Source: Thermodesulfovibrionales bacterium (GTDB taxonomy: Bacteria > Nitrospirota > Thermodesulfovibrionia > Thermodesulfovibrionales > UBA6898). From it: a stretch of 64,000 bases of DNA. Both the position numbers and the translations under genes were made by a program. The notes under the pieces were generated by a model, which saw only the letters and a program-made list of their open reading frames with translations, did no database searches and had not been told where the DNA came from. The stretch spans positions 1 to 64,000 of the forward strand of contig JBIOIY010000006.1 in the NCBI GenBank assembly GCA_044450345.1, written 5' to 3'. Numbering within the stretch: position 1 is the first letter of the stretch; every line of letters begins with the position of its first letter. Positions 6,707 to 60,672 of this stretch are shown piece after piece.

Positions 6707-6895
6707 ATGTATCTGGTCAATGTAAACTTTGACTGCTGTACCGGCTGCGGTGAATGTGTAAACATCTGCCCGGTCGAAGTATACCGGATGGGGGACAACG
6801 GCAAGACCGACCCTTATCAGGCAGGCGAATGCGTCGGCTGCATGAGCTGCGTCGAGGTTTGCCCCGATAAATGCATAGAAGTCAGAGAGATGTAG
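6707..6895 (+). CDS. 2x[4Fe-4S] ferredoxin
   Basis: Two CxxCxxCxxxCP motifs in 62 aa; GGAGG SD. Confidence 0.93.
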   Translation: MYLVNVNFDCCTGCGECVNICPVEVYRMGDNGKTDPYQAGECVGCMSCVEVCPDKCIEVREM

Positions 6896-42201: not shown

Positions 42202-44280
42202 CTATGGGAGGCCCGACCAGAGCATGCTTTGGTCCCTTCCGTTCTGCTTTGCATAGTAGAGGGCCTGGTCCGCCTTTTCTATAAGCTCTTCCTTGCTCTT
42301 CGCGTCGGAAGGAGAGGTAGCGATGCCTATGCTTACTGAGACCTCAATCTGCCTGCCGTTTGCAGAAAAGGGATTTTCTTTGACTTTACGTCTTAACCTC
42401 TCTGCGATGTTCTTTGCCCCTTCGCCGGAGGTCCCCGGGAGGACGACGGCAAACTCCTCTCCCCCGTATCTTGCGGGAATGTCTATGTCGCGGATCGTCT
42501 CCCTTATCACTGATGCAACCCCCTTAAGTACGAGGTCACCTATGGGATGGCCGTATGTGTCATTCACCTTCTTGAAATAGTCGATGTCCGTAAGGATGAG
42601 GGAGATAGGTTCAGCAAACCTCTTCATGCGTTTGAACTCGTCCGCTAGCTCCTCTTGAAACTTCCTATGGTTGAAGAGGCCCGTGAGACCATCTGTCGCA
42701 GCCATCTTTTCGATCCTGGCATGCAGCTGTGCATTTGCTATCGAAGTCGAAGCCTGATTGGAGAAAATATCCAGCAGATTTATGCGGGAGCTGTCGAGAA
42801 AATCCTTTTCCTCGGAAAGCATGACCAGCAGCCCCAGGAGATTGCGCTCATATATCATGGGAATAGCCATGACCGAAAGAACATTTTCCGTCTCGAACGG
42901 CATAATTTTAATTGAGGGGTATTCCCGCAGGTCGGGGACATAATGTCTGTGCCTGTTCTCAATTGCAAAATTGACGATGGTCCCCCTGAAATCGACAATG
43001 GCGGCCGCGCCGGATACGACGCCGGTATGGTACTTCAACTCAAAATTCCTGCCCTGACTGATAAAAAAAAATGATCGGGCCCCGGATATCTTCTCAGCCA
43101 CCTTGCAGAGCTTCTCGGAAATCTCATCGATCTTCAGAGAGGTTACGAGGGATGAACTCTCCCGCTCCAGCATCTTCAACCCGGATAATTCACGGTTGAG
43201 CGCCATGGATATCCTCTGTCTTTCGAGGATCCTGATAAGGTGGTCTGCAAACATCTTGACCGTTTTTTCCGTGCCCTCTATCCCGCTGAAGGCCTGGTAG
43301 CGGGAGCTGTCGACGGTCAACACCCCGGTTACGGCTGACCCTTCCATGATCGGCGCTGCGATAACAGAGGTGATCTTCATCTTTCCTGTTTTGTGATAGC
43401 CAAGGTCTGCGCCTTTGTCGTCAAGCTCACCGGACGAGAAAGTCTTCCTATCGCTCAGGCATTTGGCGATGACTCCACCATTTTTTGTAACAACAACATC
43501 CTTTCCCTCTGTAGTGCACCTCAGTTCGATGCCTTCGCTGCAAGGAACGAAAAAATTGACGGAGTCGGCAAGGACGGCCTTTTTAATGGTGAGGAGGAGC
43601 TCTTTTATTTCCTCGTCGGTACTGCGGGCAAAAGCCACATAATGGACCATCATCTCGTCGTTGCTCAAAGATTCCATCTCGGCCTCACGCGTGATGCCTT
43701 TTGCCTTGTCCCTGATCGCATTCAGCGATCTTTCAAGTTCTTCTTTCCCCTTTTTCGACTTATCGAACACTACTCCTGCCGTCAGCGCCGTAAGCATAAG
43801 GAACAAAGAAAATGCCGCCTCTTCAATGAGTATCTCGGAAGAAAATGATGCCTTATGCAGCAGATAAGAAGCAAATGCCGAGAGAGAACCCTTTAATCCA
43901 ACGACAGGGATAAGCAAAGACAGACGAAGAATGGCCTTAACCGGAAAAAAATAAACTGCGGCAATAATAAGAGGGAAAAAGACCAGTTTAAGCCAAGGCA
44001 GCTTCAGTGCCGAAATAATACCAGCCAGGGCCACTAATACCACAAATAAAAACTCCGCAGACAATTCCCTTTTGTCAGCGCTGAAAACCAGAAAGGCATA
44101 GAGCAAGGCCGTCGCAACAGACAGCGGGAACCAGATGATAGGGCGTGTTACAGGGATATCAGTCAGCAGGAAAAGCCAGGAGACAACGAGCAAAAGGAGC
44201 GCCGTGCTCCTCTTCAGCCAGTAGCTCTGCCTTTCTTTATCTCCTCTTCCCGGAAGAATTTTTTGTAGAGTACTTCCCAT
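42202..44280 (-). CDS. Membrane-anchored GAF-GAF-GGDEF diguanylate cyclase
   Basis: N-terminal TM helices, two GAF-like regions, TDGLTGLFN, I-site RxxD, ARYGGEEF; start uncertain. Confidence 0.9.
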   Translation of the reverse strand: MGSTLQKILPGRGDKERQSYWLKRSTALLLLVVSWLFLLTDIPVTRPIIWFPLSVATALLYAFLVFSADKRELSAEFLFVVLVALAGIISALKLPWLKLVFFPLIIAAVYFFPVKAILRLSLLIPVVGLKGSLSAFASYLLHKASFSSEILIEEAAFSLFLMLTALTAGVVFDKSKKGKEELERSLNAIRDKAKGITREAEMESLSNDEMMVHYVAFARSTDEEIKELLLTIKKAVLADSVNFFVPCSEGIELRCTTEGKDVVVTKNGGVIAKCLSDRKTFSSGELDDKGADLGYHKTGKMKITSVIAAPIMEGSAVTGVLTVDSSRYQAFSGIEGTEKTVKMFADHLIRILERQRISMALNRELSGLKMLERESSSLVTSLKIDEISEKLCKVAEKISGARSFFFISQGRNFELKYHTGVVSGAAAIVDFRGTIVNFAIENRHRHYVPDLREYPSIKIMPFETENVLSVMAIPMIYERNLLGLLVMLSEEKDFLDSSRINLLDIFSNQASTSIANAQLHARIEKMAATDGLTGLFNHRKFQEELADEFKRMKRFAEPISLILTDIDYFKKVNDTYGHPIGDLVLKGVASVIRETIRDIDIPARYGGEEFAVVLPGTSGEGAKNIAERLRRKVKENPFSANGRQIEVSVSIGIATSPSDAKSKEELIEKADQALYYAKQNGRDQSMLWSGLP

Positions 44281-44498
44281 TCGGGGCTGCCTTCTATCAA
44301 CTTCTTCGAAAACGACTGGAGTTTCTTTCTGACAATCTGATCTATATCCTCCCCTATCTTCAGTTCCGAAACGATCGTGCGTTTTATCTCGCGCCGTATT
44401 GCGCCCTCGTCCTCAACCAGTTCGACCAGGCCCTGCTGCATCAGGCCCTTGAGGAGTACATGACTGAGATGAGATATCTTATCCTCGGAGAGCATCAT
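44214..44498 (-). CDS. DUF507-family protein
   Basis: LSEDKISHLSH...VRKKLQS...EGSPEWEVLY; tandem partner of the next gene. Confidence 0.75.
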   Translation of the reverse strand: MMLSEDKISHLSHVLLKGLMQQGLVELVEDEGAIRREIKRTIVSELKIGEDIDQIVRKKLQSFSKKLIEGSPEWEVLYKKFFREEEIKKGRATG

Positions 44499-44776
44499 AG
44501 GACCAGGTTTCTCTCCTTCACAAGCTTATGTTTCGTGAGTTCAAAAAGCTTCCGGTAGTCCATCCTGCCCCGTTCGATATCCGTGGAGTGCTTTTTCAAC
44601 AGTTCCCGCACCTCGTCATTGAGCCTGTCTTCCACCATGAGCTCTTCCATGACGATCTCTTCCGTCTTCGCGATGAACTTGTCCATGGGGACCGTGATCT
44701 TCACAACCTCCCTTGAAGTCAGGTTCTCGGCCACCTTCCTGGCCAGTATCTGCACCCAGGACTTCGGGACCCTCAT
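44495..44776 (-). CDS. DUF507-family protein
   Basis: EDRLNDEVRELL...DYRKLFELTKHKLVKER. Confidence 0.78.
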   Translation of the reverse strand: MRVPKSWVQILARKVAENLTSREVVKITVPMDKFIAKTEEIVMEELMVEDRLNDEVRELLKKHSTDIERGRMDYRKLFELTKHKLVKERNLVL

Positions 44777-46359: not shown

Positions 46360-46506
46360 TCTCTCCTCCTCTTGTAACGCATTAGGACATTATTGCTTCT
46401 TTCTGTACGGTTCTCACACGCAGTTAACTTATCACTTCGGCAAATAAATATCAAAAGCTTCTTTCGACTTTTGGTCTTCCCGATGCCATTTGATTTATAA
46501 TTAAGA

Positions 46507-47574
46507 GTGGTCAAAAAGATAGAAGAAAAGATCCTCTCCGGCAAGCGCCTAACAGAGCGTGACGCGCTCAAGCTCTTTGAGACTGATGATATCTTTTCCC
46601 TGGGCAGGCTCGCATCTTCCATAGCGGAAAAGAAAAACGGGAACAAGGCCTACTTCATACGCAACAGGCATATCAACCCGACGAACATCTGCGTAAACAG
46701 ATGCAGGTTCTGTGCATTCAGCAGGTCTGCCGGGCAGGAAGGCGCCTTTGAACTGACTATCGAAGAAATTGTCAACAAACTTCGGCCGCTGGTCCGCACT
46801 GGTCGTCCTATTTCCGAGGTCCACATTGTGGGCGGACTCCATCCAGACTGGCCTTTCGAATATTACCTCGAGATGATCTCGACGATTAAAAAACACTTCC
46901 CGCAGTTGCATATCAAGGCATTTACGGCGGTCGAGGTCGACTATATGGCCGGGATAAGCGGCCTCGGACTTGGAGAAACACTCACGGCCCTGAAGTCGAA
47001 CGGCCTCGGATCGATGCCAGGAGGGGGGGCCGAGATATTCGCCCCTGCAATCAGGGGCCGTCTCTGCCCGGAAAAAATATCCGGCACGAGATGGCTTGAA
47101 GTGATGATGGCAGCCCACCGCGCCGGAATTAGGACAAACGCCACTATGTTGTACGGACACATCGAAAAATATGAGGACCGTGCCGACCATCTCGTCAGGC
47201 TCAGAAAACTCCAGGACAGGACAGGAGGGTTCCAGGCGTTTATTCCCCTTGCGTATCATCCTAAGAATACAAGAATAAAAGGGAGATACACATCCGGGAT
47301 CGATGACCTAAAGACTATTGCGATAAGTCGTTTGTTTCTGGATAATTTCGATCACATCAAGGCATATTGGATCATGCTCGGAGAAAAGATATCCCAGCTC
47401 GCACTGAAATTCGGTGCCGACGACATCGACGGAACGATCATCGAGGAAAAGATCACGCACTCGGCCGGAGCGATGACAGGGGAACAGCTTTCGGCTGATC
47501 AGCTTATATTCTTGATAAAGAGGGCCGGGAAGGTCCCGGTTGAAAGAGATTCGTTTTATCGGAAGGTCCGATGA
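46507..47574 (+). CDS. mqnE: Aminofutalosine synthase (radical SAM)
   Basis: HINPTNICVNRCRFCAF, EVHIVGG, HIKAFTAVE, HIKAYW. Confidence 0.92.
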   Translation: MVKKIEEKILSGKRLTERDALKLFETDDIFSLGRLASSIAEKKNGNKAYFIRNRHINPTNICVNRCRFCAFSRSAGQEGAFELTIEEIVNKLRPLVRTGRPISEVHIVGGLHPDWPFEYYLEMISTIKKHFPQLHIKAFTAVEVDYMAGISGLGLGETLTALKSNGLGSMPGGGAEIFAPAIRGRLCPEKISGTRWLEVMMAAHRAGIRTNATMLYGHIEKYEDRADHLVRLRKLQDRTGGFQAFIPLAYHPKNTRIKGRYTSGIDDLKTIAISRLFLDNFDHIKAYWIMLGEKISQLALKFGADDIDGTIIEEKITHSAGAMTGEQLSADQLIFLIKRAGKVPVERDSFYRKVR

Positions 47575-48629
47575 AGAAGAGGGAACGCGGTAGGATTTCT
47601 AAGAGGCGCGCGCTCACCATGCTGAAAAATGCCGACCTGCTCGAACTTGGTGCCGAGGCGGACGGTATAAGAAAGGCGATCCATCCGGAAGGCATCGTTA
47701 CTTTTATAGTCGACAGGAACATTAACTATACGAATGTATGCATCAACAAGTGCAGGTTCTGCGCCTTCTGGAGGGACGAGGACGCGCCGGATGCCTACCT
47801 TCTCGATGAAAAAACTCTCTTTGCAAAGATCGAGGAGACCATAAAACTCGGCGGTACCCAGATACTGATACAGGGCGGGCTTCACCCTTCACTCGACATC
47901 AATTACTACGTGAAATTACTGACATCGATTAAACAAAGATTCAACATTAATGTGCATGGCTTTTCACCTCCTGAAATATGCTATATCGCTGATACCTCCG
48001 ACCTTACGATAAGAGAGACCCTCAGCATATTGAGAGGGGCAGGGCTTGATTCGGTCCCCGGCGGCGGTGCGGAAATCCTTTCGGACAGGGTGAGGGAGAT
48101 ACTCAGCCCTAAAAAGATAAAGTCCTCCCGCTGGCTAGCCGTCATGGAAAGCGCCCACAGAATCGGTATGAGGACCACCGCAACCATGATGTTCGGCAGC
48201 ATCGAAAGCCCGGAGGACATCATCGAACATCTCGATTCCATCAGGAAACTGCAGGACAGGACCGGGGGCTTTACCGCCTTCATCCCATGGTCGTTCCAGC
48301 CGGGGAACACCGAATTAAGTAGGAGCTTATCGCACTACACCTCTGTTACCGCTGTCGATTATCTCAGGGTGCTCGCCCTTTCGAGGATCTATCTTGACAA
48401 CGTTGATAACATTCAGGCCTCCTGGGTAACACAGGGGCTTAAACTGGCCCAGGTCAGTCTGAGATTCGGGGCGAACGACTTCGGCTCGACGATGATAGAG
48501 GAAAATGTGGTCGCGTCTACAGGCGTCAGCTACCAGGTGTCGAAAGACGATATTCTCAACGCCATCAAAACATCGGGATTTAAACCGGCACAGAGAGACA
48601 CCTACTACAACCTGATTAAAAGATTTTAA
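47571..48629 (+). CDS. mqnC: Cyclic dehypoxanthine futalosine synthase (radical SAM)
   Basis: DRNINYTNVCINKCRFCAF, FSPPEI, QASWVTQG, GSTMIEENVV. Confidence 0.93.
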   Translation: MKKRERGRISKRRALTMLKNADLLELGAEADGIRKAIHPEGIVTFIVDRNINYTNVCINKCRFCAFWRDEDAPDAYLLDEKTLFAKIEETIKLGGTQILIQGGLHPSLDINYYVKLLTSIKQRFNINVHGFSPPEICYIADTSDLTIRETLSILRGAGLDSVPGGGAEILSDRVREILSPKKIKSSRWLAVMESAHRIGMRTTATMMFGSIESPEDIIEHLDSIRKLQDRTGGFTAFIPWSFQPGNTELSRSLSHYTSVTAVDYLRVLALSRIYLDNVDNIQASWVTQGLKLAQVSLRFGANDFGSTMIEENVVASTGVSYQVSKDDILNAIKTSGFKPAQRDTYYNLIKRF

Positions 48630-48653
48630 AGCTTCCCTGATCCCTGTAACCCT

Positions 48654-48681
48654 TTAGTATTGTCGAGTTAGTATTGTCGAG
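48654..48681. repeat. Perfect 14-bp tandem duplication
   Basis: TTAGTATTGTCGAG twice. Confidence 0.85.
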
Positions 48682-48915
48682 GAAAAAGCCGGCGACGGGC
48701 TCGATCTCGATGACTCCTTAGATAATCCTAAATTGCTTGTCTAATCTCTTCTTTTTCCATCCGATGCCCCTTATTAAACCGGAATCTCCCTCTTACTTTA
48801 TATGGGGGCTTGGATCGGCGTGCAACGGGCGGTTTCCGAAGGCCCTTCATGCTGACAAGTCCTCATGGAGTATGGTTAAATAATTATTAAATGAGTGGAG
48901 ATTTCCGGAGGAGAT

Positions 48916-49863
48916 ATGACCGAATCTGAAGAAATATACGATGTAGTTATCATAGGCGGTGGTCCAGGCGGACTTTCCGCGGCGCAATATGCTTCCAGGT
49001 CGAGACTCAGAACGATAGTCCTCGACAAGTCAGCCACGGCAGGGGCACTTGCATATACCAGTCACATAGAGAACTATCCGGGACTTTTATCCCCGATATC
49101 CGGCAAAGAGCTTCTCGACATCTTCCGCCGGCAGGCTATCAATTTCGGGACAGAGTACATTGAAACGCAGGTTGTCGGGGTAAAACTCGACTCTGATGTC
49201 AAAGAAGTCTTCACCATGGAACAGAGCTACCGAGGGAAGGCGGTAATCATCGCAACAGGCTCAATGGGGCGGAAGGCCACCATAAAAGGAGAGGCCGACT
49301 TCCTCGGCAAAGGGGTAAGTTACTGCGCCGTCTGCGACGCCGCATTCTATAAGGGCAAAACAGTATGCGTCATCGGCAACTCGGAGGAGGCGGTAAAAGA
49401 AGCGGGGTACTTAACGAGGTTTGCCGAAATTGTCTATCTGATTTCACCAACCCCAAAACTCAAGATCGAAAGCCATCCCTCGCTTGCAGCAGAAAATCTC
49501 AAGGTCATACCGGAAAGTTCCGTAATCGCTATCGAGGGCAGCGAGACCGTCGAAAAGATCAGGGTCGTCGGTCCCGATAGACAAGAGAAGGAAATCCCGC
49601 TGTCAGGCGTCTTCGTGTATATCCATGGCAGCAGGCCGATAGTTGACTTCCTTTACGGGTCCCTTGAACTGACCGAAACGGAATGCATCGAGACAAGCCG
49701 TATGATGGAAACGTCCATGCCGGGAGTTTTCGCAGTTGGCGACGTGACCTGCACTGAGGTAAGACAGGTAGTGATCGCTGCTGCCAACGGCTGCCTCGCA
49801 GCACTCTCGGCTGAAAAATATATCCACCACCGGTCGAGACTCAAGTCTGACTGGGGGAAATAG
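48916..49863 (+). CDS. Flavin thioredoxin reductase, DTR/ferredoxin-dependent type
   Basis: GGGPGG FAD motif, CAVC, AVGD; NADPH motifs replaced (GNSEEA, SPTPK); C-terminal DWGK. Confidence 0.85.
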   Translation: MTESEEIYDVVIIGGGPGGLSAAQYASRSRLRTIVLDKSATAGALAYTSHIENYPGLLSPISGKELLDIFRRQAINFGTEYIETQVVGVKLDSDVKEVFTMEQSYRGKAVIIATGSMGRKATIKGEADFLGKGVSYCAVCDAAFYKGKTVCVIGNSEEAVKEAGYLTRFAEIVYLISPTPKLKIESHPSLAAENLKVIPESSVIAIEGSETVEKIRVVGPDRQEKEIPLSGVFVYIHGSRPIVDFLYGSLELTETECIETSRMMETSMPGVFAVGDVTCTEVRQVVIAAANGCLAALSAEKYIHHRSRLKSDWGK

Positions 49864-49873
49864 GGTTCCCGGC

Positions 49874-50413
49874 TCAGAACCAATATTCCGGGTATTTTCT
49901 GGACTTTGAGAGATTATTCACGACGAGTGCAATGAGCAAGAGGAGAACGGCGCCGAGACCTGCGGGAACAAGTGCATAGAGGAAGCCCAGGTCATGCACC
50001 TTTTTCCCGCCTATGACCGCTATCAAGGCAGTTGCACCGCCGGGCGGATGGAGCGTCTTCGTGCACAGCATCACCACAATAGAGAGGGAGACCGACATCG
50101 CAGAGGCTATCCAAAGCGTATCTCCGAAGAATTTATAGCATACGACTCCGACAAGTCCTGAAAGGATATGCCCCCCGAGGAGATTTCTCGGCTGCGCAAG
50201 GGGGCTCTTTATTGCGGCATAAACAAGGACGGCAGAAGCACCGAAGGAACCTATTATCAGACTCATATCCCTCGGTTCAAAATATTTTGCAGAAATATAT
50301 CCACATAATGCTATCCCCACTGAGGAGCCGAGCCATGCCCACAGTATTTCGGTCATTCCGACGCCGGGAGGGCTCTTTGCCCCGCCTTTTATCTTCACAA
50401 AGAAGCCTGTCAT
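49874..50413 (-). CDS. HPP-family membrane protein
   Basis: SFGASAVL, SPLAQPRN, HPPGGA. Confidence 0.92.
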   Translation of the reverse strand: MTGFFVKIKGGAKSPPGVGMTEILWAWLGSSVGIALCGYISAKYFEPRDMSLIIGSFGASAVLVYAAIKSPLAQPRNLLGGHILSGLVGVVCYKFFGDTLWIASAMSVSLSIVVMLCTKTLHPPGGATALIAVIGGKKVHDLGFLYALVPAGLGAVLLLLIALVVNNLSKSRKYPEYWF

Positions 50414-50994
50414 TTTTTTGCGACCGCCCTCACGATATCGGTCCTTGAGACGATGCCGACCAGCACGCCCCTGGAGTCTACCACGGGAAGTCTCTTGATC
50501 CTTCGTTCTTCCAATATTCCTGCGATCTCCAGTATGAGTGCGTCGGGTGTGGTCGATATAGCGGGAGATGACATAACTTGCCTAACGGTATTTCCGGCCT
50601 TGTTTCCCGGCACAGACTCACCAAGCAGGCGCGCCACGATATCCTTGAAGGTGTGCCCCCTTTTCATCCCCATGACAGAGAGGATGTCGGCCTCTGTGAT
50701 TACACCTAGGACACGATTTTCCTTATCTACGACTGGCAATCCGCTCACCCTGTGACCTGAAAGGAGCATTATCGCCTCTTCGATATCGGCATCCTCATTT
50801 ACAGCCACCGCCTCGATCGTCATCACTTCGGACACCTTCCTATGAAGGGCCGGCCTCTCCTTCGCATGCCGGAGGGCGAGAGAATAGATCTTGAGGAGAT
50901 CTTCTTCGGTCACATCGACATACGTCTTCATATCGCTGAGGGCCGCCCTCAGATCCTCTCCGGAAATCTCTGATTCCTCTGTCCTATCGTCCAT
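50410..50994 (-). CDS. CBS-pair protein
   Basis: VSGLPVVD...GVITEADI and IKRLPVVD...GIVSRTDI; start uncertain (GTG at 51009 possible). Confidence 0.9.
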   Translation of the reverse strand: MDDRTEESEISGEDLRAALSDMKTYVDVTEEDLLKIYSLALRHAKERPALHRKVSEVMTIEAVAVNEDADIEEAIMLLSGHRVSGLPVVDKENRVLGVITEADILSVMGMKRGHTFKDIVARLLGESVPGNKAGNTVRQVMSSPAISTTPDALILEIAGILEERRIKRLPVVDSRGVLVGIVSRTDIVRAVAKK

Positions 50995-51074
50995 AGCCCA
51001 AATGCTCACTCCGAAACTGCGGCATGACCAAAAAACGTCTATGTTTTAGCTTAGTACAAAACTCAGGCTAAGGA

Positions 51075-51090
51075 TATGACGTGCATCATA
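51075..51090 (-). promoter_or_regulatory. CRP/FNR-family-like palindrome TATGA-N6-TCATA
   Basis: TATGAcgtgcaTCATA, centred at -41.5 if minus-strand TAAGCT (51053-51048) is the -10. Confidence 0.6.
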
Positions 51091-51099
51091 CGGAGCAGA

Positions 51100-51133
51100 T
51101 AAAAAAAGGGCGATGGAAATTCCATCGCCCTTT
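51100..51133 (-). terminator. Intrinsic terminator of dsrTMKJOP-ferredoxin
   Basis: GGGCGATGGA/TCCATCGCCC stem followed by a T-run on the minus strand. Confidence 0.85.
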
Positions 51134-51155
51134 CAAAAAATTAGAGATTCTTTTC

Positions 51156-51341
51156 TTACATTTCAGTAAGAGTGACCGCGCTCGTTGAGCATACACTAGT
51201 ACAGGTCTCGCAGCCTTCGCAGAGATCAGCCTGCTCAGCAAATGCCTTTCCGTCCTTCATTACAAAAACACTGACAGGACAGTTATTTACACACTCTTCG
51301 CAAGCCTCGCATTTTGATGCGTCCACAGAAACTTGATACAT
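51156..51341 (-). CDS. 2x[4Fe-4S] ferredoxin
   Basis: CEACEECVNNCP and CEGCETCTSVC; AAGGAGG SD. Confidence 0.93.
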   Translation of the reverse strand: MYQVSVDASKCEACEECVNNCPVSVFVMKDGKAFAEQADLCEGCETCTSVCSTSAVTLTEM

Positions 51342-51423
51342 GATACAATCCTCCTTTAAGTCATTAGCCAGAGAGTTCTGGTTTTTCTAATTATAAATAA
51401 TTTTCTTTATAAAATCCAGTAAT

Positions 51424-52587
51424 TTATTCGTGGTATCCGCCTTCTTCCCTGACAGAGATAGCAACCTTATAGAGTACGGTCAGGACCAGGAACCCGATCG
51501 CCCAGACACCGAGCGTAATCATCGCCTCAGGCGCGGTCGGCCAATACTCCGTGATGCCCTCGAACATGTTGGGCACAAACCCGCCGATGACCAACCCAAA
51601 CCCTTTATCTATCCAGAGAGAGATGAAAAGTGATGCGCAGGCAACTGCAAGCAGGTTTTCGTTCTTGCGGAAACCGGGGAAAACCAGAAGAAACAGCGCG
51701 ACCACCGCAAGGATACTGGAAGTCCACATGATCGGCACGAGTTTATCATGCCCTTCAATCCCGGCATAGAGGTACCTGAAGGGACTAATGTGACCGGGGA
51801 TATTGCTATAGAAAGCAGTAAAGAACTCGAGCCCAAGGAGAAACACGTTGGCGAACATGGCATACGTTACGATCTTTCCGAGCGCCTGGATCGGCTCCTG
51901 TCCCGGATCGAATTTCGTCAGCTTTCTGACGAGAAGGGCCAGGATGATCAGCAGCGCCGGGCCTCCGGCAAAAGCGGATGCGAGAAACCGGGCTGCCATC
52001 ACGGCCGTCAGCCAGAAATGCCTGCCGGGGATACCCGCATACAGGAAGGCCGTAACCGTATGGATACTGACCGCCCACGGTACCGAAAGATAGATAAGGG
52101 GCTTTACCCATTGGGGCGGATGCACTCCTTTGCTGTCTGCGGCCAGCGTAGTCCAACCGATCACGATATTCAGCACGAGGTAGCCCATTAACACAACGCT
52201 ATCCCAGAACATAACCGAGTTTGGTGTGGGATGAAGAATAACGTTTGTTATCCTCATCGGCTGTCCCATGTCGACAAAGATAAAGAGGATGCACATGATC
52301 ACGGCCGAGACTGCGAGGAATTCACCCAATATAACTATCTTCCCGAATTTCTTGAAATCATGGAGATAGTACGGAATGACGAGCATCACCGCAGAGGCGG
52401 CAACCCCGACCAGAAAGGTGAACTGGCCGATATAGAGTCCCCAAGACACGTCGCGGCTCAGTCCGGTGATACCCAGACCATAGCTGAACTGTCTGAGGTA
52501 CTGGGTCATGGCTATGCCGATGACTACCAGCAACACGCCTATCCACAGCCAATATCGTTTACTTCCAATAAGAGCTTTCTCGAGCAT
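51424..52587 (-). CDS. dsrP: DsrP (NrfD/PsrC-family membrane subunit)
   Basis: SWGLYI, VDMGQP, SIHTVTAFL, WIDKG; position after dsrO. Confidence 0.95.
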   Translation of the reverse strand: MLEKALIGSKRYWLWIGVLLVVIGIAMTQYLRQFSYGLGITGLSRDVSWGLYIGQFTFLVGVAASAVMLVIPYYLHDFKKFGKIVILGEFLAVSAVIMCILFIFVDMGQPMRITNVILHPTPNSVMFWDSVVLMGYLVLNIVIGWTTLAADSKGVHPPQWVKPLIYLSVPWAVSIHTVTAFLYAGIPGRHFWLTAVMAARFLASAFAGGPALLIILALLVRKLTKFDPGQEPIQALGKIVTYAMFANVFLLGLEFFTAFYSNIPGHISPFRYLYAGIEGHDKLVPIMWTSSILAVVALFLLVFPGFRKNENLLAVACASLFISLWIDKGFGLVIGGFVPNMFEGITEYWPTAPEAMITLGVWAIGFLVLTVLYKVAISVREEGGYHE

Positions 52588-53381
52588 TATTCCTTACCTC
52601 CTATCACGTAGTAAATACTGGGCTGTGTTCCTAGTTCGGGTTTACGCCTGATCGTATACTTCGACTCTATGATCTTTCTCACCTCGGAATTCGGGTCTCC
52701 GAGATCTCCGAATACGATAGCCCCGTTCGATGCCTCAACACATGCCGGCATCTGCCCGATTGCCAGCCGTTCGTAACACATGGTACATTTCTCGACAACA
52801 CCGATCGTGCGAGTAGGGAACTGCTTGTTTTCCTTCTTGATGAAGGGCCGGGGATCACGGTAGTTGAAGCTCCTCGCCCCAAACGGACAGGCCGCCATAC
52901 AGAACCTGCAGCCGATGCACCGGTGCATATCCATCATCACTATTCCGTCTTTGCGCTTAAAAGTGGCCTTGGTGGGACACACCCTGACACACGGCGGCTG
53001 TTCGCAATGGTTGCATAAAAGAAGGAAATTCTTCTCCTTCATCTCCTTGTTCATATACTCGTCTTCCGTGGATGTGGGGAACGTACGCTCGTAGTTGTCC
53101 TTCCAGATCCACTTCACCTCGTCTTTGGGATTGCCGATGTCGGGCACGTTGTGGATGCTGTGGCAGGCGTCGACGCACTTCTGATAATCTTCAGGCGTCC
53201 TCAACTTGCTCACGTCGATGACAAAACCCCATCGTTTGGCCGTAAGGGACCTGGGATCAGGATGCGTCTGTGTCGCCTCCAATATCTTTCCTCCCATGCC
53301 GTTAAGGACAGCGGGGCCGCCGATCCCGAGCACGGTCGAAACTCCGGCTAGTTTTAAAAATTGTCTTCTATTTATGCTCAT
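52587..53381 (-). CDS. dsrO: DsrO periplasmic iron-sulfur subunit
   Basis: Tat signal NRRQFLK, CNHCEQPPCVRVCP, CIGCRFCMAACP, EKCTMC. Confidence 0.95.
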   Translation of the reverse strand: MSINRRQFLKLAGVSTVLGIGGPAVLNGMGGKILEATQTHPDPRSLTAKRWGFVIDVSKLRTPEDYQKCVDACHSIHNVPDIGNPKDEVKWIWKDNYERTFPTSTEDEYMNKEMKEKNFLLLCNHCEQPPCVRVCPTKATFKRKDGIVMMDMHRCIGCRFCMAACPFGARSFNYRDPRPFIKKENKQFPTRTIGVVEKCTMCYERLAIGQMPACVEASNGAIVFGDLGDPNSEVRKIIESKYTIRRKPELGTQPSIYYVIGGKE

Positions 53382-53788
53382 GACTCTTTCTCCTTCGGTG
53401 CGATGTGGCAACTGAAGCAGTATGGGTTCACCCCGATATAATTGTGGCATTTATCGCAGAACTCTTTTTTATTCGAATGGCAGTTCAAGCATGTGTTCTG
53501 AAGACTCATGGTGAAACTCTTGCCTCCGGAATTCACATAGATACGATCGCCGTTCCGGACGACCGAGTCACGCCACTGGTTGATCATCTGCATATGTTCC
53601 GCCCTCATAAACGCCTTGGGTTCAACACATTCCTTCTTGCCATGCTCTTTTTCCCATTGGAGTATCGCCGGCGTGTCGAACTTCAGCTCGGGCTTTGCAT
53701 TGGCCTTGCCGAGGTTATAATAAAAGGGGAACGCGAAGATTGCCACGAAGGCAATCACCACCCCGATGACTATTTTTCCTGAGTTCAT
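53378..53788 (-). CDS. dsrJ: DsrJ triheme cytochrome c
   Basis: Three CxxCH motifs plus CVE...MRAEHM. Confidence 0.95.
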   Translation of the reverse strand: MNSGKIVIGVVIAFVAIFAFPFYYNLGKANAKPELKFDTPAILQWEKEHGKKECVEPKAFMRAEHMQMINQWRDSVVRNGDRIYVNSGGKSFTMSLQNTCLNCHSNKKEFCDKCHNYIGVNPYCFSCHIAPKEKES

Positions 53789-53789
53789 C

Positions 53790-55409
53790 TCAGTTGCCCT
53801 CCTTTCCCGGCAGGGGATCACCGCGTAAGTTGGTCTCCCTCTCCTTTTCGCCTTTCATAATCAGGGCATTGGCAACCATTTCGTGTATGCCCGTGACCCG
53901 CACACCCGGGACCCAGTAATCCATGGAGGCCGAAAGCGTGGCCCTGTCTATCGCACAGATATTCGCAAGCATATTGACGCCATGCTTGTCCTTGACGTGC
54001 TTCACTGCATTGGCCCTCGGGAATCCGCCTCTCATCCTGAGTTCCATATTTTCACTTGCGTTGAGGCCCGTACCACTGCCGCAGCAGAACGTCTGCTCCC
54101 TGATGGTATTCTCAGGCATCTCATGGAAGTGGTTGCAGACGTTCCTGATAATATAGCGCGGCTCTTCCAGAAGCCCCATTCCCCTTGCGGTATTGCAGGA
54201 ATCATGGTATGTCACCACGAGGTCATCGTTCCTCGAAGGGTCGAGTTTCAGTTTGCCGTGTTTGATAAGGTCTGCCGTGAACTCAGCGACATGGATCATC
54301 TTGGTTGACCTGGCATTTTCAAACTTAGTCCCGGTTATAGGGGAAACCGGCACCTCCATGAAATCGGTCGGGCCATTCCAGGTATCCATATATTGATGAA
54401 GGACACGCCACATATGTCCGCACTCCCCGCCGATGATATATTTCACGCCAAGCCGTTTGGCCTCGGCGTATATTTTTGAGTTGAGCCTTTTAGCCATATC
54501 ATTAGACGTGAAGAAGCCGAAATTGCCGCCTTCGGATGCATAGGTAGACCACGTGTAGTCAAGACCAAGTTCGTGAAAGAGTGCGAGGTAGCCCATGCAG
54601 GTGAAGGTGCCGGGATCGGCAAAGAGGTCGCCCGAGGGGGTAACAAAGAGTATCTCTGCGCCCTTCCGGTTGAAAGAGGGGTTCACCCTGACCCCAGTGA
54701 CGGTCTCTATGTCGTCGATCATGCCCTCGATGCTGTTCATGATGGCGTGGGGCTCGAGACCCAGGTGATTGCCCTTCATATAACAGTTGGCCACAGGCCC
54801 TGATATCCAGTCAGTATTCAATCCAAGCAGGTTCAGAAGCTCCCTGCACATTATCGTTATCTCAGCGGTATCAATACCGTAGGGACAGTAGAGCGAACAG
54901 CGGCGGCACTCGGTGCACTGGTATGCATAGTACCAAAGCTCTTTCAGCACATCGACGGTCAGTTCCCTGGCGCCCGCGGTCTTTCCGAGGATCTTTCCTG
55001 ATGTTGTGAAATATTTCCTGTAGACCGACCTTAGGAGTTCAGCCCTCCCCACGGGCATGTTTTTGGGGTCCCCCGAGCCGATGAAGAAGTGGCACTTGTC
55101 GGCGCATGCACCGCACCTGACACAGATGTCCATGAAGACTTTGAAGGAACGGTATTTACTAAGGAGGTCCTGCATCCCTTTTAAGAATATCTCCTGCCAG
55201 TTCTCCGGGAGTTTCCAGTCCTCATCGGACGGGTTCCAGTCCCTCGCGTTTGGGAACTCTACGGTAGCGAGGTTCTTTCCCTTTGCGCCCCAGCAGAATG
55301 TCCCCGGTTTTATTACCGTCGGGGTGTCCATCCACTCGGTCTTGGGCGGGGTAAAATCTATAGAAGTTACCAGTTCAGCGGGTTTTGGAGTAGTTACTTT
55401 TGTCGCCAT
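53790..55409 (-). CDS. dsrK: DsrK (HdrD-like) subunit
   Basis: CVRCGACADKC, CTECRRCSLYCP, GECGH, HDSC, CCGSG. Confidence 0.96.
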   Translation of the reverse strand: MATKVTTPKPAELVTSIDFTPPKTEWMDTPTVIKPGTFCWGAKGKNLATVEFPNARDWNPSDEDWKLPENWQEIFLKGMQDLLSKYRSFKVFMDICVRCGACADKCHFFIGSGDPKNMPVGRAELLRSVYRKYFTTSGKILGKTAGARELTVDVLKELWYYAYQCTECRRCSLYCPYGIDTAEITIMCRELLNLLGLNTDWISGPVANCYMKGNHLGLEPHAIMNSIEGMIDDIETVTGVRVNPSFNRKGAEILFVTPSGDLFADPGTFTCMGYLALFHELGLDYTWSTYASEGGNFGFFTSNDMAKRLNSKIYAEAKRLGVKYIIGGECGHMWRVLHQYMDTWNGPTDFMEVPVSPITGTKFENARSTKMIHVAEFTADLIKHGKLKLDPSRNDDLVVTYHDSCNTARGMGLLEEPRYIIRNVCNHFHEMPENTIREQTFCCGSGTGLNASENMELRMRGGFPRANAVKHVKDKHGVNMLANICAIDRATLSASMDYWVPGVRVTGIHEMVANALIMKGEKERETNLRGDPLPGKEGN

Positions 55410-55411
55410 TT

Positions 55412-56404
55412 TCACTCCTTCTCGACCGGCAGACCGGCCTTTTTCATTTTTTCTCTGAAGTCGTTTTCATACTCTTCATAAGTATGGACATGCACCGGAT
55501 GGTTCCACGGGTTGATGTGTCTTACCTCCCTGCTGTTGTTGGCCATGTTCCTCGTCGGGCTGAGGAAAACACCGCCCATGTGCATGAGCTTGCTCATAGG
55601 GAAGTAGGCAAGCAGGGTGCTGACGAGGAAGAGGTGGATATAAAAGACAGGGCTGATGCCTTCCGGGATCGTCGGACTAAAAGAGAGAAGCCCCATCACA
55701 AGTTCTTTTACGCCCACTACGTGCACCTTGGTAAAATACCGCATAAAAATGCCCGAGATGGCGATACCGAGTATGAGAAACAGGGGGAAATAATCAGCAG
55801 GAAGGGATATATACTTTATCTGGGGCATTAAGACTCTTCTTAAAAACAGAAACGTCACCGCCCCCACAAGGACAACGTCTGTCATATAGAGCAGCGGGGC
55901 GCCGATTTGCAAGAAACTGTCCAGCCCCTCTATCGTCTTTATGACGAATGGTACATCCAGCATGAAGAACCTAAAATGTCTTACAAAGATAATAAGAAAC
56001 GACCAGTGGAACGCGAGCCCCGCGAGCCAGAGGAACTTCTCTGACCCGTAGGCGAGCTTAGTGCCGGGATAGAGCTGCGTCTTCGTGTTCCTGAAAAGAG
56101 AACGGAAAAAGAACACTTCGAGCACCATTCTCACAAACACAGCCCCGGGCGTCGACGGGTTGTCGATCTTATTCGCCTTGATCCAGGGCGCGAAGGACTT
56201 CATCTGCCCGGCAGTAGTCGGGATGCGGTAAGGCACCGGCGAGTTTCCCCACTTAAACACTCGGACCACAAATCCTATGATGAAGATCGCAACGGCAATA
56301 TATGGGATAATAATCCCGAACACGGACTGGAGGTTCGCCTGCACCCCCACAAATGCGATCACGACAAGCGCTATGACGGTAAATAAGGGCAGCAAGATTT
56401 TCAT
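55412..56404 (-). CDS. dsrM: DsrM membrane cytochrome b
   Basis: FFRSLFRN, FH...RH, H...FPMSKLMH, SPTRN. Confidence 0.96.
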   Translation of the reverse strand: MKILLPLFTVIALVVIAFVGVQANLQSVFGIIIPYIAVAIFIIGFVVRVFKWGNSPVPYRIPTTAGQMKSFAPWIKANKIDNPSTPGAVFVRMVLEVFFFRSLFRNTKTQLYPGTKLAYGSEKFLWLAGLAFHWSFLIIFVRHFRFFMLDVPFVIKTIEGLDSFLQIGAPLLYMTDVVLVGAVTFLFLRRVLMPQIKYISLPADYFPLFLILGIAISGIFMRYFTKVHVVGVKELVMGLLSFSPTIPEGISPVFYIHLFLVSTLLAYFPMSKLMHMGGVFLSPTRNMANNSREVRHINPWNHPVHVHTYEEYENDFREKMKKAGLPVEKE

Positions 56405-57196: not shown

Positions 57197-57532
57197 CTAT
57201 ACGCAGCCAGTAGGTTTCGGAAGGCCAGCATACCTACAAGCCTGTTTTGCGGGTCCGGCCGGATAGAGCTCGTACAGGTATTTTGTATTGCCTTTTTCAG
57301 GCCCCATAGCCTTTCCGATCTCTTTGACAAGGATCTTGATCATCGGAGCTATCTGATACTGCTTGTAATATTCTCTCAGAAAGTTGATGACTTCCCAATG
57401 AGCATCGGTAAGGGCAAGTCCATCTCCCTTAGCCAGTTCTTCGGCCAAATCCTTGGTCCAGTCGTCGAGGTTCAAAAGATAACCATCATCATCAACCTCG
57501 ATCTGTTTTCCTTGAAAATCCATAGTCGGCAT
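57197..57532 (-). CDS. dsrC: DsrC sulfur carrier
   Basis: HWEVINFLREYY, GPAKQACRYAGLPKPTGCV with both C-terminal Cys. Confidence 0.97.
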   Translation of the reverse strand: MPTMDFQGKQIEVDDDGYLLNLDDWTKDLAEELAKGDGLALTDAHWEVINFLREYYKQYQIAPMIKILVKEIGKAMGPEKGNTKYLYELYPAGPAKQACRYAGLPKPTGCV

Positions 57533-60423: not shown

Positions 60424-60672
60424 TTACTTTATAAGACCTTTTTCTCTGAGGTACTCATCGCTGGGTATCTCGACGGAACTCGCACCGCCTCCATATGAAT
60501 ACATGAGCCTTCCTACGTCTATCATACCTCTCATTGCCTTCTTTACTTCATCTCCGGGCAGGCTCTGCTCTTCAGATACGCCTTTGATGATGTCTTTCTC
60601 TTTCAGTTTTTTCTTACCCTTTGCCGCTAGTACGAAGGCAAAAATCTTGTCTTGAAGCTCAGCTGTTTCCAT
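60424..60672 (-). CDS. dsrD: DsrD
   Basis: 82 aa basic winged-helix-like protein (VKKAMRGMIDVGRLMYSYGG) directly after dsrB. Confidence 0.85.
   Translation of the reverse strand: METAELQDKIFAFVLAAKGKKKLKEKDIIKGVSEEQSLPGDEVKKAMRGMIDVGRLMYSYGGGASSVEIPSDEYLREKGLIK

Follow-up and report, generated by a model that had tools for sequence, protein, structure and literature searches.

The protein encoded at positions 48916-49863 (+) of a 64,000-nucleotide stretch of DNA, here called the window (positions 1 to 64,000 of contig JBIOIY010000006.1, assembly GCA_044450345.1), is placed with strong support from sequence, fold and phylogeny among the DTR-type thioredoxin reductases, a kind first known from the cyanobacterium Gloeobacter and also called 'cyanobacterial' FFTRs (ferredoxin-dependent flavin thioredoxin reductases). 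The host is a dsr-bearing member of the Thermodesulfovibrionales (Nitrospirota) and not of the deltaproteobacteria, and the gene lies near its genes for sulfite reduction. Our reading, which we hold at a probability of roughly 0.8, is that the protein is a homodimeric enzyme with FAD and a redox-active CxxC pair, that it would work independently of NAD(P)H and be driven by ferredoxin, and that it has a housekeeping role throughout its order.

The open reading frame is free of stops over 315 codons and has GGAGGAG directly 5' of its ATG; a GTG is in frame 21 bases further 5', but the alignments with orthologues begin at residue 1 as counted from the ATG. A Pyr_redox_2 domain (Pfam) covers residues 8-292. 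A first-pass annotation, made from the letters alone, had claimed that the FAD and CxxC motifs were intact, that the NADPH motifs GxGxxA and HRR were replaced, that the chain ended in KSDWGK, and that segments GALA...NYPG and VFVY..G..P were shared with DTR; the translation and our alignments agree with it on each of these points. The FAD motifs are the N-terminal GGGPGG (GxGxxG, residues 13-18) and the distal C-terminal GVFAVGD, and the CxxC is CAVC at residues 137-140, in which, across a 68-sequence alignment, Cys137 is invariant and Cys140 is present in at least 90%. At the positions of GGGDxA and HRRxxxR, the two motifs with which NADPH thioredoxin reductases (NTRs) bind their coenzyme, the protein has GNSEEA and ISPTPKLK, and in an aligned motif table both replacements are the same as in the DTR of Gloeobacter violaceus (5J60) and in other tail-bearing DTR-type representatives. 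A printed alignment with the Gloeobacter enzyme contains the common GALA...NYPG and GVFVY..G..P segments and places Trp313, within the basic C-terminal tail HHRSRLKSDWGK, on the tail Trp of 5J60. All 76 aligned sequences (the query and 75 orthologues) have this Trp, at least 90% of them have an Asp in front of it, and every one has a tail rich in Arg and Lys. Chance is not a sufficient explanation of these features, because the match to 5J60 has an E-value of 2.6e-85 and because the Trp is kept without exception.

Among solved structures the closest is that of Gloeobacter DTR (5J60/6XTF; 289 bits over residues 8-314, including the tail Trp), with an NTR next best at 198 bits, the clostridial FFTRs 6GNA-6GND at 111-130 bits and Desulfovibrio TRi (5NII) at 108 bits. 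Against TIGR01292, the NCBIfam model for TrxB, the protein scores 306.2 bits, under the curated cut-off of 343.45. A search over 1.84 billion representative proteins returned a single cluster at 61% identity as its top match, followed by about 20 representatives at 241-315 bits with matches reaching query residues 312-315, and then by a long plateau of representatives at 190-230 bits, most of which end near query residue 304. The proteins of the top group, about 20 in number, lack the NADPH motifs and have a basic tail with Trp or Tyr, and those of the plateau mostly carry GGGxxA and HRRxxxR.

A maximum-likelihood tree of 73 rows and 287 columns was built after removal of the tail and of the two NADPH-motif regions, so that these traits cannot drive the grouping. 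Four of its rows are paralogues encoded in this genome; the other 69, with the query among them, come from 118 representatives that are 285-345 aa long (all ids up to P0070 and every fourth beyond, with P0071 and P0117 dropped as fragments). The query falls with 100/100 support in a clade of 28 rows together with P0010, our proxy for cyanobacterial DTRs (marine cyanobacterial DTRs, 480 bits to 5J60 over the whole length). None of the 29 rows with NTR motifs belongs to this clade, and the genome's own canonical TrxB, on contig C72, stands outside it beside an NTR; a quick tree on all columns had the same outcome. An AlphaFold2 model, computed template-free as a monomer without FAD, has a mean pLDDT of 91.8 and a pTM of 0.81, and superposes on 5J60 and 6XTF with a TM-score of 0.92 over 314-316 columns at 43% identity. 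Its TM-score to NTR structures is only about 0.55, since the domains of NTR are arranged differently; the predicted chain matches the open, resting two-domain arrangement of DTR, unlike the NTR crystal forms. The phylogeny that had been proposed as a check on the first-pass annotation places the reductase with the DTR proxy and apart from canonical TrxB, and its DTR-type identity is borne out by sequence, fold and phylogeny alike.

Comparison with known systems places the enzyme more narrowly. With Gloeobacter DTR (5J60, and 6XTF with Fdx1; Buey et al. 2017, 2021) it has in common its length, the two-domain TrxR fold, the FAD motifs and CxxC, the loss of both NADPH motifs, the two shared segments, the basic Trp tail and the clade, and so every sequence-level and phylogenetic feature of the DTR-type FFTR class is present. 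It differs from the Gloeobacter enzyme in sharing only 43% identity with it, in belonging to an anaerobic, dsr-bearing Nitrospirota host rather than a phototroph, and in coexisting with a canonical NTR in the same genome. The clostridial FFTRs (C. acetobutylicum and C. pasteurianum; 6GNA-6GND) are ferredoxin-driven TrxR homologues without NADPH motifs whose donor is a 2x[4Fe-4S] ferredoxin (PMC8154056), a type of donor that is available in this genome; they are, however, far more distant (111-130 against 289 bits), shorter (288-294 aa) and without a C-terminal Trp tail, and the reductase, which has the tail, is not one of them. The bacterial low-molecular-weight TrxB of TIGR01292 shares the superfamily, the FAD and CxxC chemistry, 33-41% identity and presumably the thioredoxin substrate, but the reductase has neither a score over the TIGR01292 cut-off (306 against 343.45 bits) nor the two motifs GGGDxA and HRRxxxR of a canonical TrxB, and has an extra tail and a separate clade. 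The FNRs of the Bacillus YumC and Chlorobaculum type (3LZW, 2ZBW) resemble it in their C-terminal extension, in an aromatic residue over the flavin re-face and in interacting with ferredoxin, but lack CxxC, bind NADP(H) and match at just 60-68 bits; a parallel between such TrxR-like FNRs and the DTR tail was drawn by Buey et al. (PMC8154056). Desulfovibrio vulgaris, a sulfate reducer, has a TR homologue, TRi (5NII; Valette et al. 2017), that is independent of NAD(P)H (PMC5627308); it differs in its 108 bits, in a different reductant pocket and in having no Trp tail reported.

The Gloeobacter enzyme is ferredoxin-dependent, NAD(P)H-independent and tail-dependent, and deletion of its tail abolishes both ferredoxin binding and ferredoxin-driven activity (PMC8154056). 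If the mechanism is carried over by homology from that enzyme (5J60/6XTF; PMC8154056), reduced ferredoxin would dock in the inter-domain groove against the tail of the partner subunit and pass one electron to FAD, and a second ferredoxin would complete the reduction in a second one-electron transfer, with Trp313 in the basic tail of the partner stacking on the flavin and stabilising the neutral semiquinone. The tail would then swing off and the disulfide domain would rotate in, allowing FADH2 to reduce Cys137-Cys140, the dithiol of which would reduce thioredoxin. A canonical WCGPC thioredoxin is encoded elsewhere in the genome (G000 C2:102657-102959). NAD(P)H would not be used, because both pyridine-nucleotide motifs are absent. 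Tail-bearing DTRs also occur in an independent Aquificota lineage, to which the P0006 cluster, including Hydrogenivirga, belongs. In 20 of the 30 Aquificota-type metagenome loci with upstream sequence (L101-L135, e.g. L104:3379-3978), the gene immediately preceding that of the enzyme, on the same strand, encodes an AhpC/TSA peroxiredoxin. This fits an enzyme of the thioredoxin system, and in that lineage the two genes may form an operon that removes peroxide with electrons from ferredoxin.

Gloeobacter DTR is proven to take its electrons from a plant-type [2Fe-2S] ferredoxin, a partner for which, the authors of that work suggest, the tail evolved (PMC8154056). A plant-type ferredoxin standing alone was not found in the present genome (91% complete), where Fer2 occurs only within frames of 286-931 aa, and no FTR was found; among the Fer2 matches listed from 31 genomes of the order the smallest frame was 158 aa, with 12 weaker matches beyond those. 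A plant-type partner is thus a property of the studied DTR that was not recovered here, and one that need not hold for the whole family. It follows that the donor must differ from that of the Gloeobacter enzyme, and that it is likely to be one of the four small acidic [4Fe-4S] ferredoxins of the genome (Table 1); our confidence in a donor of this type is moderate. The first-pass annotation had pointed to the ferredoxin gene 1.3 kb from the reductase as a possible donor. That gene is not singled out by our results: it co-occurs with dsrMKJOP and not with the reductase, and as its orthologues were found only where dsrP is also present (10 loci), proximity does not mark it as the donor. A second ferredoxin, encoded at window 6707-6895 (+), is a 62-aa acidic 2x[4Fe-4S] protein, 46% identical to the dsr-linked one and an equally plausible donor. 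In the related loci L016 and L020, which have no dsr genes nearby, the plus strand carries a different small ferredoxin-like reading frame some 2.6 kb upstream of the reductase; its identity to the dsr-linked ferredoxin is 42-46%. A complex prediction with the reductase dimer, two FAD, the 61-aa ferredoxin and two [4Fe-4S] clusters gave a score of 0.00 and a mark of 0.32, and carries no weight either way on binding. An F420-linked (DFTR) reading, prompted by two CofH-like genes upstream, was rejected: these genes are MqnE and MqnC above the respective cut-offs, not CofG or CofH, and CofD, of F420 synthesis, had no match in this genome at its 91% completeness.

All 80 related loci drawn from genome records are from Nitrospirota, mostly labelled Thermodesulfovibrionales or Candidatus Sulfobium, and the relatives are annotated in their sources as 'thioredoxin reductase (NADPH)' or 'thioredoxin-disulfide reductase'. 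Among 120 further Nitrospirota genomes that were sampled, orthologues reaching the C-terminus at 54-72% identity were present in 19 of 19 genomes of the same order, and the other 101 genomes, outside the order, had no match above 41% identity. In a sample of 46 genomes from the order, the present one among them, 45 had a TrxB-model hit of 294-336 bits in a frame of 313-377 aa; the 48 hits concerned are defined by the score range of this gene, with the tail Trp and the loss of the NADPH motifs checked in part of them. The reductase gene belongs to the housekeeping genes of the Thermodesulfovibrionales. Ten of the 46 genomes have a canonical TrxB that stands alone and scores above the cut-off, and many of them have a fusion of about 545 aa resembling AhpF. 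A second TrxB-model hit at E <= 1e-50 is absent in 10 of the 46, and in these the DTR-type counterpart therefore appears to be the sole TrxB-family enzyme, which would tie the thiol redox state of such members to the low-potential ferredoxin pool. We lean, by a small measure, towards the broader proposal that the tail-Trp DTR is the ancestral, order-wide thioredoxin reductase, the only one in about one-fifth of the sampled genomes, and that it is driven by a bacterial [4Fe-4S] ferredoxin.

Besides the reductase, its canonical NTR (motifs GGGDTA and HRKKTLR, contig C72) and an AhpF-like fusion, this genome encodes several TR-like proteins. Two are short paralogues with CxxC and without NADPH motifs (G000 C18:42833-43690, that is L006:1483-2400, -; and C1:232273-233130, that is L007:1483-2373, +). 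The C18 copy, which was the one searched, has as its best solved relatives the cyanobacterial diflavin-linked disulfide oxidoreductases 5JRI and 5N0J (112 bits), and by its sequence matches would be a second 'cyanobacterial' oddity of the TR family in this Nitrospirota genome. Two further TR-like proteins lack CxxC (G000 C7:25735-26628, -; and C19:22389-23348, +); one of them has an N-terminal Cys-rich segment that we take to be YHS/TRASH-like, and the other is preceded by a long N-terminal region resembling, by appearance, a cyclic-nucleotide-binding domain. Among the representatives, P0123 and P0147 have both NADPH motifs yet end in ...DW(K) like a DTR tail, and P0124 ends in ...DWGIKK, lacks the NADPH motifs and lies outside the DTR clade; a DTR-like tail may have been gained or lost more than once. 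P0007 is a protein of 1427 aa with a TR-like region at 879-1191 that matches the query at 287 bits.

Several points weigh against our reading. The motifs, the family placement, the fold and the distribution are direct results, but dependence on ferredoxin rather than NAD(P)H and the thioredoxin substrate are inferred by homology, from an enzyme to which the identity is just 43%. The plant-type ferredoxin that serves the sole studied DTR was not found, and the donor is reached by elimination in a genome that is 91% complete. The canonical NTR and AhpF-like fusion mean that the reductase is not the sole route to reduced thioredoxin in this cell. In the model, residues 311-315 have a pLDDT of about 60, so confidence is low at the very end of the tail, and as 5J60 was released before AlphaFold2 was trained, the match in domain arrangement may partly be memory. 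It could be supposed that the protein is an ordinary NAD(P)H-dependent TrxB with a drifted nucleotide site, as the labels of its relatives would have it, and its overall fold, CxxC and 306 bits to TIGR01292 are indeed TrxB-like; but both nucleotide motifs are missing, the score is under the curated cut-off, the 100/100 DTR clade stands apart from every row with NTR motifs, the reference enzyme uses no pyridine nucleotides (PMC8154056), and a separate TrxB with both motifs is present in the genome. We regard this alternative as very improbable. That the enzyme is of DTR type but takes its electrons from something other than ferredoxin, be it rubredoxin, a protein with a flavodoxin-like domain, F420H2 or an unrecognised carrier, is a less remote alternative, although still an unlikely one. 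The only proven type of DTR donor was not found here and one rubredoxin gene is present, but the potential of rubredoxin is far too positive to drive thioredoxin reduction. The flavodoxin domain occurs in this genome only within frames of 423 and 290 aa, CofD was not found, and the basic tail would suit any acidic ferredoxin, such as the candidates with a pI of about 4.1. Other TR-like enzymes do use F420 or unknown donors (PMC5627308), against which the clostridial FFTRs are a case of enzymes from this superfamily being supplied by 2x[4Fe-4S] ferredoxins (PMC8154056).

Table 1. Positions of the reductase, its neighbours and the candidate donor ferredoxins; positions are those of the window unless another contig is named
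Feature	Position	Strand	Basis or property
DTR-type (tail-Trp) flavin thioredoxin reductase, 315 aa	48916..49863	+	sequence, profile, tree, fold evidence
mqnE, aminofutalosine synthase, radical SAM	46507..47574	+	TIGR03700, 512 bits, cut-off 434.55
mqnC, cyclic dehypoxanthinyl futalosine synthase, radical SAM	47571..48629	+	TIGR03699, 497 bits, cut-off 428.1
spacer mqnC-reductase, 286 bp, GGAGGAG at ATG	48630..48915	+	sequence
HPP-family membrane protein, convergent with reductase, 10-bp gap	49874..50413	-	domain match
protein with paired CBS domains	50410..51009	-	domain match
ferredoxin, 61 aa, acidic, two Cys clusters, pI 4.1, last gene after dsrP, candidate donor	51156..51341	-	sequence
dsrP	51424-52587	-	profile match
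dsrO	52587-53450	-	profile match
dsrJ	53378-53821	-	profile match
dsrK	53790-55415	-	profile match
dsrM	55412-56404	-	profile match
four small acidic [4Fe-4S]-type ferredoxins, candidate donors	window 6707-6895; window 51156-51341; C8:26969-27160; C18:1262-1453		pI ~4.1

Across the order, mqnE and mqnC are the most persistent upstream neighbours of the reductase. Of 65 loci flanked by 2.5 kb or more, 34 have mqnC upstream in the same orientation as the reductase, 22 of them within 400 bp, and by identity band the link is found in 12 of 16 loci at 74% or above, 11 of 20 at 70-74% and 11 of 29 at 60-70%; the spacer between mqnC and the reductase is 12-45 bp in many relatives. Loci without the mqn genes have ParA/ParB, pyrR-pyrB-pyrC, DUF72 or CBS-domain genes next to the reductase. 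The HPP gene stands beside the reductase in only 3 of the 80 related loci, and CBS proteins of a different arrangement lie directly upstream of it in 10 other loci. Across the 80 Nitrospirota loci no conserved thioredoxin or ferredoxin gene adjoins the reductase, and a thioredoxin gene is never adjacent. A crude scan of 48400-50100, too crude for operon structure, found no sigma-70-like promoter on the plus strand and no terminator after the reductase. Part of 46500-51400 is represented in just one public RNA run, a metatranscriptome from peat (7% of sampled words), in which two short contigs, 95-99% alike and from a near relative, cover the CBS gene at 50406-50894 and the ferredoxin gene at 51178-51373; neither covers the reductase or mqnC, and these contigs have no bearing on the transcription of those two genes. 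Further upstream, at window 44214-44776 (-), DUF507 is divided between two adjacent, overlapping reading frames (model positions 1-93 and 95-181), and since both halves are separate in 15 related loci, the split looks natural and not like a frameshift.

Past the HPP and CBS genes, the minus strand carries in order the ferredoxin gene, dsrP-O-J-K-M, an RsbRD_N-domain gene, dsrC, two unnamed genes, dsrN, a dsrD-like frame, dsrB and dsrA; read from dsrA, the block is dsrA-B-D-N, a DVU0298-family gene, orf118, dsrC, the RsbRD_N gene, dsrMKJOP and the ferredoxin gene. The product of 57197-57532 (-), with the C-terminus ...PKPTGCV, is presumably DsrC, and the 82-aa product of 60424-60672 (-), between dsrB and dsrN, we take by its signature to be DsrD-like. 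dsrMKJOP (51424..56404, -) is counted here as context and not as part of the reductase system. The first-pass annotation had placed the reductase beside the dsr cluster, and the proximity is literal in this window, with 1.29 kb to the ferredoxin gene, 7.3 kb to dsrC and 12 kb to dsrA; the reductase is nevertheless on the strand opposite to the entire dsr block and convergent on the HPP/CBS pair. Its proposal that linkage to dsr be looked for in other genomes had a negative outcome. Of the 51 related loci flanked by 5 kb or more, 10 have dsr genes downstream of the reductase, and eight of these 10 are among the closest relatives; the proportion is 8 of 12 loci at 74% identity or above, 1 of 16 in the 70-74% band and 1 of 23 in the 60-70% band. 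A counterpart of the reductase, defined as a score-range hit, shares a contig with dsrA in 9 of the 46 genomes of the order; in seven of these the two are at least 137 kb apart, and in the remaining two (this genome and G127) 11-12 kb apart. No dsrA hit was found in the enzyme-bearing genomes G003 (100% complete) and G131 (93% complete). In one closed genome of the order (G062:C1:1668205-1669267), dsrA occurs in two consecutive frames of 148 and 228 aa and may be broken or frameshifted.

The surroundings of the gene invite two other readings of its role. It might be a disulfide reductase dedicated to dsr, fed by the ferredoxin encoded after dsrP and reducing oxidised DsrC or another Dsr protein, as the short distances and the recurrence of the same arrangement in 10 related loci and in G127 could suggest. 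The opposite, convergent orientation, the fading of adjacency as identity falls, the large separations in seven of nine genomes and the complete genome G003 without a dsrA hit all argue otherwise. DsrC is moreover already re-reduced by DsrK of DsrMKJOP, and to our knowledge the cyanobacteria and Aquificota that hold DTR relatives are not known for dsr. A functional tie between the reductase and dsr is not supported, and no result of the analysis pointed to action on DsrC, which the first-pass annotation had raised as speculation; we consider such a dedicated role extremely improbable, and the gene seems to have come to lie beside the sulfite-reduction genes by chance. Alternatively, the enzyme might be the partner of MqnE and MqnC in one operon, keeping these or their products reduced. 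This would agree with the same-strand link in about half of the loci, with spacers as short as 12-16 bp in some of them, with retention of the link in the most distant orthologues (60-70% identity) and with the lack of a promoter-like site on the plus strand of the 286-bp spacer in the crude scan; yet all of these cases come from a single order, so that inherited gene order suffices, the link is missing from roughly half of the loci, which have other housekeeping neighbours, the Aquificota lineage pairs its enzyme with a peroxiredoxin instead, and we know of no chemistry between a thioredoxin reductase and MqnE or MqnC. We likewise give this partnership very little credence, and the mqnE-mqnC link may be inherited gene order within one order.

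That DTR occurs in this phylum is already in print, since its discoverers listed Nitrospirae among the holders of DTR (2017 Mol Plant paper, as cited in PMC8154056), and our literature search found no study of a DTR-type enzyme in Nitrospirota beyond that one-line mention in PMC8154056. What our analysis adds is that the enzyme is conserved throughout one order and seems, in some members, to be the sole representative of the TrxB family; that a tail-bearing enzyme occurs without a detected plant-type ferredoxin partner; and that the comparison for a link to dsr was negative, by which a tempting but unsupported connection between the reductase and the DsrC cycle is removed. The annotation 'thioredoxin reductase (NADPH)' for these proteins is also corrected. 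A whole order of anaerobic sulfur-cycling bacteria would thus rely on a ferredoxin-linked enzyme of the DTR type, some of its members apparently without any other TrxB-family enzyme, and these bacteria are natural test cases for whether the Trp tail serves plant-type ferredoxin only or one-electron donors generally. If our proposal is true, the C-terminal Trp tail would serve generally to take up electrons one at a time from any ferredoxin of low potential, and would not be, as its discoverers proposed, an adaptation to photosynthetic ferredoxin; and thiol redox control in these sulfate and sulfite reducers would be wired to the ferredoxin pool rather than to NADPH.

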